Assembly (NCBI RefSeq): GCF_013122565.1
Contig: NZ_CP053258.1
Length of the DNA: 64,000 nucleotides
Strand: one strand, 5' to 3'
Origin: Escherichia coli
GTDB lineage: Bacteria > Pseudomonadota > Gammaproteobacteria > Enterobacterales > Enterobacteriaceae
The first letter of the stretch is position 1. Every line of letters begins with the position of its first letter. Positions 63,003-63,414 of the stretch are shown one piece after another. The translations under genes and the position numbers were made by a program. The notes beneath the pieces are model-generated. The model saw nothing but the letters and a program-made list of their open reading frames with translations, did no database searches and was not told the DNA's origin.

Positions 63003-63353
63003 AGTAAATAGCTGACTTATGGATGTGCTGGGGATTCTATGTATTTAGCTGTGGCTTTACCATTACTTTTCCCGTTTTTGACTTAAATAGCAATTTACCC
63101 GCCAATTCTTGCTGAACATCTATACTTTTTTTGTATTTTTATGCGATTCATTGATTTCTGCAGTACGTGCAGGAAGGAATCGCAGAGCAACAGTAAAAGA
63201 ATATGGTCACTAATGATTTTATTTGATTGATTTCTTTATTGAAAATCAACAATATGCTTAAAAATCATTCGGGTCGGATTGCCGCGAAAGAAGTGATACA
63301 CTAGCGCGTCAATATCAGTGCGGTATCAGTATTCAGGTAGCTGTTGAGCCTGG

Positions 63354-63365
63354 GGCGGTAGCGTG
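63354..63365 (+). promoter_or_regulatory. ops element GGCGGTAGCGTG (RfaH recruitment site, part of the JUMPstart sequence) in the waaQ leader
   Basis: Exact match to the 12-nt ops motif about 50 bp upstream of the waaQ start. Confidence 0.7.
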
Positions 63366-63414
63366 CTTTTTCTGCTTCACCTTAATCGGATAATCTCAAC
63401 AAAAAGAGTTACTT

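Follow-up and report, generated by a model that had tools for sequence, protein, structure and literature searches.

A canonical ops element forms the 3' end of a complete JUMPstart in the waaQ leader of an Escherichia coli LPS-core operon

Introduction

The ops sites of the hlyCABD, kps and F-type tra operons are among the closest described relatives of the element considered here, and share with it the same 12-nt consensus, an untranslated leader, the use of the non-template strand and RfaH (PMC5995543, PMC9765446). Compared by their published description, they belong to other operons and have other leader lengths, the hly ops being located far from its promoter (PMC9765446). Pausing at U11 does not need bases C3 to G8 of ops, which RfaH requires; a small C3:G8 hairpin arises in the non-template strand with T6 flipped out, and RfaH reads G5 and T6 (PMC5995543). 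In cryo-EM structures the ops-paused complex is pre-translocated and becomes hyper-paused upon docking of RfaH, whose refolded KOW domain is positioned for the ribosome (PMC11001881). Of the eight loci marked by RfaH ChIP-seq in the uropathogenic strain CFT073, four (wzx, hly, kps and rfa) are seen in wild-type cells; at the rfa locus the RfaH signal lies over the operon, with a sigma70 peak upstream of ops and a coat of H-NS/StpA (PMC9765446).

A second group of relatives is formed by the JUMPstart elements of rfb (O-antigen), capsule and colanic-acid operons (Rfam RF01707), which share a 39-nt architecture made of a 5-bp stem-loop containing GGTAGC followed by GGGGCGGTAGCGTG. In E. coli K-12, the waaQ (rfaQ) leader is also the source of the small RNA RirA. 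The reviews of its discoverers describe an RNA that includes both ops and JUMPstart and begins at the same 5' end and start site as the waaQ mRNA (PMC5736990, PMC8745692); RirA is reported to bind RfaH in an ops-dependent manner and to damp the system (reviews of Klein 2016, including PMC5736990 and PMC8745692). The pause in the rfaQ leader has a half-life of 17 s in vitro and is insensitive to NusA, and weakening of the hairpin changes this half-life only about 1.4-fold (PMC9291695). Term-seq of K-12 recovered strong RNA 3' ends in the waaQ 5' UTR (Adams et al. 2021, PMC7815308, supplements 1 and 3), at NC_000913.3 3808184 (minus strand) in LB at OD 0.4 (62,669 reads), and at 3808183 (minus strand) in LB at OD 2.0 (116,952 reads) and in M63 (75,075 reads). 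The K-12 waaQ-leader 3' end has a Rho score of 1.04, which is not classed as significant Rho termination; its intrinsic-terminator score is 6.28, on a scale where 3 or more counts as suggestive (PMC7815308).

In the present study we have analysed a window of 64,000 nucleotides of E. coli DNA that ends within waaQ, and in which a sequence-only reading had placed an ops element at 63354-63365, ahead of a core-LPS operon whose expression would depend on RfaH. The ops is a correct and already known textbook feature, the orthologue of the characterised element. Its reading is refined here in four respects: the JUMPstart is complete, transcription probably starts near 63309 from an extended -10, ops would work as non-template DNA, and the same leader also encodes the equivalent of RirA.

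Results

Genomic context of the leader

Positions 63003-63414 are exactly the intergenic region between waaA and waaQ, which is delimited by the following features:

61725-63002, minus strand: waaA (kdtA), a divergent ORF of 425 aa that carries the waaA annotation in the matching E. coli records
63404-63408, plus strand: AAGAG, resembling a weak Shine-Dalgarno sequence 6 nt ahead of the GTG, invariant in a 6-genome alignment (columns A113-G117)
63415-64000, plus strand: 5' part of waaQ (rfaQ), the leading gene of the LPS-core operon, which begins with GTG and is cut by the window end

The core-LPS operon that had been proposed to begin at the window edge is indeed found there, with waaQ as its first gene on the plus strand and the GTG at 63415. 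The annotated rfaQ start is the equivalent base in FDAARGOS_497 and CFT073, WaaQ homologues carry Pfam PF01075, and in the matching genomes a waaQ-waaG-waaP-waaO... operon lies downstream of the leader. WaaA of the window is 99.7% identical to K-12 WaaA over 387 aligned amino acids. The WaaQ fragment of 195 amino acids is identical to CFT073 WaaQ at 192 of 195 positions and 70.8% identical to K-12 WaaQ, the latter value indicating a different core-type lineage.

The E. coli of the window is a strain other than K-12. The intergenic region is 79.5% identical to that of K-12 and up to 99.3% identical to that of other complete genomes. Compared with CFT073, 407 of its 412 positions are identical, and there is no mismatch (100% identity) in 63292-63417, the segment between the -10 and the start codon, both included. 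The K-12 waaQ leader is identical in the JUMPstart and ops (63327-63365) and in the first six bases downstream of ops, and both the CFT073 and the K-12 leader have the same -10, start-site position, U run and AAGAG-GTG initiation region as the window. With respect to K-12, the window shows 4 substitutions among the first 15 leader nucleotides, a U run that is one T shorter and a divergent distal intergenic segment (63092-63257); no functional consequence is expected. The GC content, about 0.55 in waaA, drops to 0.35 in the spacer and about 0.40 in waaQ (0.35-0.43 over leader and waaQ), which fits an H-NS-prone target of RfaH.

The ops motif and the JUMPstart element

The elements recognised in the central part of the leader are:

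63327-63365, plus strand: complete JUMPstart of 39 nt (Rfam RF01707), with ops as its 3' end
63334-63352, plus strand: JUMPstart stem-loop, in which CAGGU (63334-63338) pairs with GCCUG (63348-63352) following the Rfam structure line
63336-63341 and 63357-63362, plus strand: GGTAGC direct repeat as read from the sequence, the second copy inside ops
63354-63365, plus strand: ops element, with G1 at 63354, T6 at 63359, G8 at 63361, T11 (the pause position) at 63364 and G12 at 63365

On the plus strand, GGCGGTAGCGTG at 63354-63365 is an exact match to the ops consensus GGCGGTAGnnTG and the sole one in the window, its surroundings reading ...GAGCCTGGGGCGGTAGCGTGCTTTTTCTGCTT...; the claimed 12-base match was borne out as a canonical ops in the orientation of waaQ. 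The bases for RfaH contact and architecture (the C3:G8 pair, G4, G5, T6 and A7) are all present together with the pausing T11-G12, following the criteria of PMC5995543. The element lies on the coding (non-template) strand of waaQ, 49 nt upstream of the GTG at 63415, and is overlapped by no ORF of at least 30 aa.

Taken alone, the 12-mer match is weak evidence, suggestive rather than decisive. Allowing up to one mismatch, the exact 12-mer GGCGGTAGCGTG has one match in 64 kb with 0.28 expected by chance, and the degenerate ops consensus GGCGGTAGNNTG has one match in the window with 0.08 expected and at least one match in 8 of 100 shuffles. The 8-mer GGCGGTAG occurs three times in the window, which is the chance level. 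Its copies at 10200 (inside a plus-strand ORF) and 52454 (on the template strand of an opposite-strand ORF) were dismissed as ops, both being devoid of T11-G12.

The identity of the element was settled by the JUMPstart model, since this matches from its first to its last position. Alignment with known JUMPstart elements, which the sequence-only reading had named as a check, gave a full-length match to RF01707 that covers 63327-63365 and model positions 1-38 of 38, with 55.2 bits, well above the gathering score of 35, and an E-value of 8.9e-12 in the scan of the region and 6.4e-10 in that of the whole window. At gathering thresholds the Rfam scan of the whole window returned this JUMPstart and a tRNA-Sec, with no other matches. 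The older literature describes JUMPstart as a two-repeat element, and the two GGTAGC copies listed above are found at this locus. Between the end of the 3' arm of the JUMPstart stem and the pause position U11, 12 nt further downstream, there are 11 intervening nucleotides. The second pair of the stem (63335/63351) covaries: the window has A-U, Pluralibacter has G-C, Salmonella has G-U and rfb/cps-type JUMPstarts have U-A. The stem is CAGG/CCTG in the waaQ type and CTGG/CCAG in the rfb/cps type.

Transcription start, RirA and RNA 3' ends

The following features describe the predicted transcript:

63294-63302, plus strand: probable extended -10 of waaQ/rirA, TG-a-TACACT, with the hexamer at 63297-63302, 7 nt upstream of the inferred start
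63309-63381, plus strand: RirA equivalent of 73 nt, aligned to K-12 rirA (NC_000913.3 3808166-3808238, minus strand)
63363-63364, plus strand: equivalents of the K-12 RNA 3' ends, +55/+56, corresponding to G10 and U11 of ops

The window aligns over all 73 nt of annotated K-12 rirA (b4760), ops included, with few substitutions. The RefSeq annotation of rirA, the reviews and the conserved -10 together suggest that transcription of waaQ starts at about 63309 (plus or minus 2 nt); ops would then occupy transcript positions +46 to +57, with U11 at +56. The assignment of the extended -10 at 63294-63302 is probable: TGnTACACT is shared by two Escherichia species (E. coli K-12 and E. albertii), by Enterobacter sp. 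Ag1, Pluralibacter and Salmonella, and by contig L132 of a gut metagenome. There is no good -35 ahead of TGaTACACT, and a simple sigma70 scan did not call the promoter. A promoter/terminator scan of 62900-63500 gave two weak promoter-like matches, no more than in shuffles, and no terminator.

The K-12 3' ends were placed at G10/U11 by means of the record coordinates and the printed flank, which gives the 10 nt downstream of each 3' end. K-12 RNAs end at U11, and therefore transcription began upstream of ops. A start downstream of 63365, which the sequence-only reading had named as the result that would put the motif outside the transcript, is argued against both by the rirA-based start at 63309 and by the K-12 3' ends at ops. 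Based on these in vivo data and on pausing of the K-12 leader in vitro, RNA polymerase would also be expected to pause at U11 in the sequence of the window. The 3' ends of the leader RNA disagree between sources, that of annotated RirA being at +73 and those of Term-seq at +55/+56; the tables of PMC7815308 contain no 3' end at 380816x-380817x, nor at the annotated 3' end of RirA (+73). We found no literature that joins RirA with Term-seq.

Conservation of the leader

Of 5426 complete E. coli genomes, 5424 contain the 73-nt leader, always as a single copy. Identity reaches at least 99% in 4412 of them, and no E. coli match falls below 90% identity to the window version over the aligned part. 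Among the matches listed, the leader is unannotated in the non-K-12 records. Orthologues of waaQ were sampled by a search with the WaaQ fragment, without selecting for ops, which provided ten loci; two further WaaQ homologues (P0043 and P0070) have no encoding contig on record and stand outside this sample. A JUMPstart above the Rfam threshold precedes waaQ in 8 of the 10 loci. L127 and L128 have no JUMPstart and no GGCGGTAG anywhere, with waaQ placed directly after rpmB-rpmG, and because of these two loci without ops, the element is evidently not obligatory for waaQ across Enterobacterales. L129 has a shorter leader with the variant GGCGGTAGCATC, from which the outer helices described below are absent, and in L126 a promoter of its own (TGGTATAAT) is combined with a JUMPstart whose ops is followed by no U run.

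A genome-wide scan for the 14-mer GGGGCGGTAGCGTG gave at least 121 matches. About 100 of the 121 matches listed have no GGTAGC-like repeat in the 30 nt upstream, and appear to be a mixture of chance matches in GC-rich genomes and lineage-specific ops leaders with other hairpins. The matches listed further include multiple ops leaders within single genomes of Enterobacterales, Halomonas, Marinobacter, Nitrincola and Pseudomonas-like bacteria, with lineage-specific hairpins ahead of ops, as well as two new waaQ-type leaders.

The leader hairpin and the U run

In the RNA, the JUMPstart stem is predicted to be part of a larger structure:

63317-63367, plus strand: extended three-helix leader RNA hairpin (RNA nt 9-59) with about 18 pairs; -18.7 kcal/mol for the minimum-free-energy fold
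63367-63371, plus strand: T run GTGCTTTTTCTGCTT, directly after the hairpin and ops

The JUMPstart stem forms the apical helix of this hairpin, the outer helix joins 63317-63322 to 63362-63367, and the ops RNA (GGGGCGGUAGCGUGCU) provides the 3' arm. Seven distinct leaders from waaA-divergent loci align without gaps, RNAalifold predicts the same hairpin as their consensus, and this is the minimum-free-energy fold in each of six orthologues. In the 7-leader alignment 96.8% of the cells are paired, compared with 30-55% when the partners are slid. Three compensatory pairs were observed: A-U is replaced by G-C once in L132 (63317 with 63367) and once in Pluralibacter, and G-C by A-U in Enterobacter sp. 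Ag1. The one-sided changes in the 5' arm all keep a standard pair. Because 5 of the 18 pairs in the window are G-U, the structure is specific to RNA and not to DNA. A U-rich run follows ops in all seven waaA-divergent leaders. Both this run and the extra 5' complement to ops are confined to such waaQ leaders, rfb/cps-type JUMPstarts continuing after ops with (C/T)CTG... and no U run.

These features favour a reading in which the leader acts mainly via RNA, where hairpin and U run together would serve as intrinsic attenuator or stabilising 3' structure in addition to the DNA-based mechanism of ops. Without RfaH, transcription would end and a short RNA, either RirA or a 55/56-nt species, would be released and would titrate RfaH; with RfaH, there would be read-through. 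The intrinsic-terminator score of the K-12 3' end and the reported ops-dependent binding of RirA to RfaH point in the same direction. We nevertheless consider this reading possible and rather unlikely. The K-12 3' ends at G10/U11 lie inside the 3' arm, with 4-5 nt of the hairpin still to follow, the tables give no 3' end beyond the U run, and a simple terminator scan was negative; the positions of these ends lend no support to reading the hairpin and U run as a simple intrinsic terminator, which we did not adopt. Furthermore, ops is invariant in all seven aligned leaders, and only the 5' arm is informative since the 3' arm is fixed as ops anyway. The observed covariation, which comes from seven sequences of a narrow clade, is reached by 12 of 500 shuffles. 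Single-sequence z-scores are between -1.4 and -2.4 for the 51-nt hairpin segment, and -0.46, not significant, for the fold of the whole 73-nt leader. The combination of hairpin and U run is absent from L126, where ops has no U run, from L129, where the leader is short and the outer helices are missing, and from rfb-type JUMPstarts.

Hairpin-stabilised leader pauses of the his/trp type and intrinsic attenuators likewise have an RNA stem about 11 nt upstream of the pause and a leader hairpin with a U run. Unlike the his/trp-type pauses, that of rfaQ does not respond to NusA and its hairpin has the small effect cited above (PMC9291695), and the ops complex is pre-translocated (PMC11001881).

Discussion

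We propose, with high confidence, that the element is a functional ops/JUMPstart signal of the waaQ LPS-core operon which follows the standard RfaH mechanism. RNA polymerase would start at about 63309 from the extended -10, transcribe an untranslated leader and pause once the RNA 3' end is at U11 of ops (63364, +56). RfaH would then bind the non-template hairpin, its C-terminal domain would refold, and RfaH would remain on the polymerase, suppressing pausing and excluding NusG and Rho. In this mechanism RfaH would also counteract silencing of the AT-rich operon by H-NS/StpA, and would aid ribosome recruitment at the weak initiation site of waaQ, which lies 49 nt further downstream. The weak AAGAG initiation region is in line with such RfaH-aided ribosome loading. 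The expected outcome is the expression of the distal core-LPS genes, and the same leader would yield a short RNA with the ops sequence, which in K-12 is RirA. By analogy with the published complexes (PMC5995543, PMC11001881), ops would act as single-stranded non-template DNA in the paused complex and not as an RNA signal.

The dependence of the waaQ operon on RfaH in this strain, as the sequence-only reading had also proposed, is suggested by the complete identity of 63292-63417 to the corresponding segment of CFT073, in which RfaH occupies the rfa operon. The features of ops and of JUMPstart that are open to sequence analysis are all present in the window, and the pause, RfaH binding and RfaH dependence have been established for CFT073, with identical sequence, and K-12, with near-identical sequence. 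We assume that rfaH is present in this genome; a search of the 64-kb window gave no RfaH homologue, and the rfaH gene of K-12 lies elsewhere on the chromosome. A ChIP-chip study of RfaH in K-12 was reportedly carried out in 2009 by Belogurov.

Apart from the RNA-based reading discussed above, the motif might be just a strong consensus pause site (G-10, Y-1, G+1), with RfaH uninvolved in this strain. The rfaQ site does pause in vitro without RfaH (PMC9291695), but the bases from C3 to G8, which are unneeded for pausing and required for RfaH, are invariant in all leaders, the RfaH ChIP signal of CFT073 begins at an identical ops, and the entire JUMPstart is conserved, all of which makes this explanation very improbable. 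A functionless chance match, which could appeal to a lone 12-mer that is not overwhelming in 64 kb, to the consensus matches in shuffles and to the chance-level frequency of GGCGGTAG, was rejected as practically negligible on the JUMPstart covariance-model score (E-value of about 1e-11) and on conservation across genera, the position and strand being exactly those of the characterised K-12/CFT073 element.

The confirmed ops leaves existing knowledge unchanged. It means that the LPS-core operon of this strain carries the standard RfaH control signal in a leader identical to that of uropathogenic CFT073, and it supports the prediction of a truncated LPS core upon loss of rfaH. The result is useful for annotation, as the region is unannotated in RefSeq records other than that of K-12.

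The conserved leader hairpin is a lead rather than a finding, and could already be described in the primary work on RirA (Klein 2016). The hairpin and U run may represent an attenuator or a stabiliser linked to RirA, and the predicted structure could block 3' exonucleases and thereby shape a short leader RNA; they could bear on the production of RirA and on the mismatch between +73 and +55/+56. Speculatively, and at a level of confidence that is low, we suggest that in the waaA-divergent leaders of Escherichia, Salmonella, Pluralibacter and relatives ops might double as RfaH-loading DNA and as the 3' arm of the RNA hairpin, forming an RfaH-sensitive attenuator or an exonuclease block that makes a leader RNA for RfaH feedback (RirA or the 55/56-nt species). 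If true, an RfaH switch and a decoy RNA would be encoded by one overlapping sequence.

Two minor points concern other signals of the region. A MarA site has been reported for the regulatory region of kdtA (PMC12052159); we found no location for it, it was without regulatory effect in that study, and it was left aside. A -10-like GATAAT is located at 63389-63394, downstream of ops, and could in principle give rise to RfaH-independent transcripts.

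Organisation of the waaA-waaQ spacer

The intergenic region between the divergent waaA (kdtA) and waaQ (rfaQ) genes (63003-63414) is a mosaic relative to Escherichia coli K-12, with boundaries near 63091/63092 and 63257/63258 that delimit three segments:

First 89 nt: segment adjacent to waaA, identical to K-12
63092-63257: middle spacer segment, highly divergent from K-12
63258-63372: promoter-side segment, again near-identical to K-12

The encoded proteins differ in the same comparison, with an identity to K-12 of 99.7% for WaaA and only 70.8% for WaaQ. The spacer seems to contain the recombination boundary, with conserved waaA on one side and a waa operon specific to the core type on the other; the promoter and the leader are retained.

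The block immediately 5' of the waaQ -10 element, TAAAAATCATTCGGGTCGGATTGCCGCGAAAGAAG (63258-63296), is kept from E. coli to Salmonella and Pluralibacter and contains an imperfect dyad formed by TTCGGG (63268-63273) and CCGCGAA (63282-63288). This block could be a candidate regulator site for waaQ or waaA. In vitro binding of MarA to the regulatory region of kdtA has been reported, with no effect on regulation (PMC12052159).

Within the leader, a degenerate ops-like direct repeat, GTGCGGTATCAG, is found at 63318-63329 (+10 to +21), sharing GCGGTA with the RfaH recruitment motif ops and carrying T in place of G8. In the predicted extended hairpin, a large part of the 5' arm consists of this repeat. 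Between ops and the waaQ start lies a -10-like hexamer, GATAAT (63389-63394), whose counterpart is GACAAT in K-12, Salmonella and Pluralibacter; no -35 element is present for this hexamer. If active, such a putative promoter would give RfaH-independent transcripts.

The 3' end of RirA

The leader RNA RirA is annotated as follows:

K-12 NC_000913.3 3808166-3808238 (1167-1239 of the K-12 comparison locus L002): annotated rirA
63309-63381: equivalent in the window

No Term-seq 3' end of Adams et al. 2021 coincides with the annotated 3' end (+73), and the abundant K-12 leader 3' ends in that study are at +55/+56, corresponding to G10/U11 of ops. Either RirA exists in vivo mostly as species of 55/56 nt, or the annotation and Term-seq detect different RNAs.

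waaQ leaders with absent or altered ops, and split waaQ genes

Two waaQ orthologues of 61-62% identity (L127 1268-1500 and L128 1242-1500) are located directly 3' of rpmB-rpmG, separated from these genes by a hairpin that resembles a terminator and by an AT-rich spacer. Neither JUMPstart nor ops was found across these 4-kb loci, so RfaH control of waaQ is not universal in Enterobacterales. In the waaA-divergent waaQ leader of L129 the ops variant GGCGGTAGCATC (G12 to C; 1389-1400) is followed by GCTTTTTCT; this leader is much shorter, with ~33 nt from the -10 TACACT to ops, and still scores 54.8 bits as JUMPstart. In two genomes waaQ is split into two ORFs, of 131 and 148 aa (L130 1501-2458) and of 140 and 234 aa (L131 1501-2569), and is apparently a pseudogene; the JUMPstart/ops leader 5' of the split gene is intact in both, identical to the K-12 type or the window type.

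ops-like leaders outside Enterobacterales, and a tandem ops repeat

Among the matches listed, exact GGGGCGGTAGCGTG outside Enterobacterales has different hairpin-like motifs on its 5' side, which are specific to the lineage (L010, L040, L043, L111, L114, L115 and L116; also L076-L078 and L060/L067/L068/L088), and genomes there often carry at least three copies. Examples of the 5' motif, again among the matches listed, are TTCTCAGGAA..CGACGG.AAATCCT, from genomes of the Pseudomonas/Stutzerimonas/Marinobacterium type, and GTGATGGAGCACC, from Nitrincola. These sites resemble ops leaders in which the upstream stem is not of the JUMPstart type. L111 has two GGGGCGGTAGCGTG copies ~1.9 kb apart. In L113 (~543-600) ops is present twice, within a tandem repeat whose period is ~31 nt (GAGGGCGGTAGCGTGAATTGTAATTGCGAGG GGGGCGGTAGCGTGAATTGTAATTGCG).

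selC and comparison with CFT073

The tRNA gene selC is a classic site of island integration.

35359-35453, - strand: tRNA-Sec (selC)

It is flanked by ORFs of 394, 479 and 772 aa, which correspond to K-12 setC (putative), yicJ and yicI; yicJ and yicI agree with the CFT073 annotation. No island appears to be inserted at this selC. In CFT073 (L133 38035-45283) a cluster of ~7.2 kb between yicH and yicI encodes a PTS fructose-type transporter, two aldolases, a ROK-family protein, a sugar isomerase and a BglG-family antiterminator, whereas the window lacks this cluster at the equivalent point (39480-39508), being otherwise collinear with CFT073 at ~97.5% identity from 35761 to 64000.
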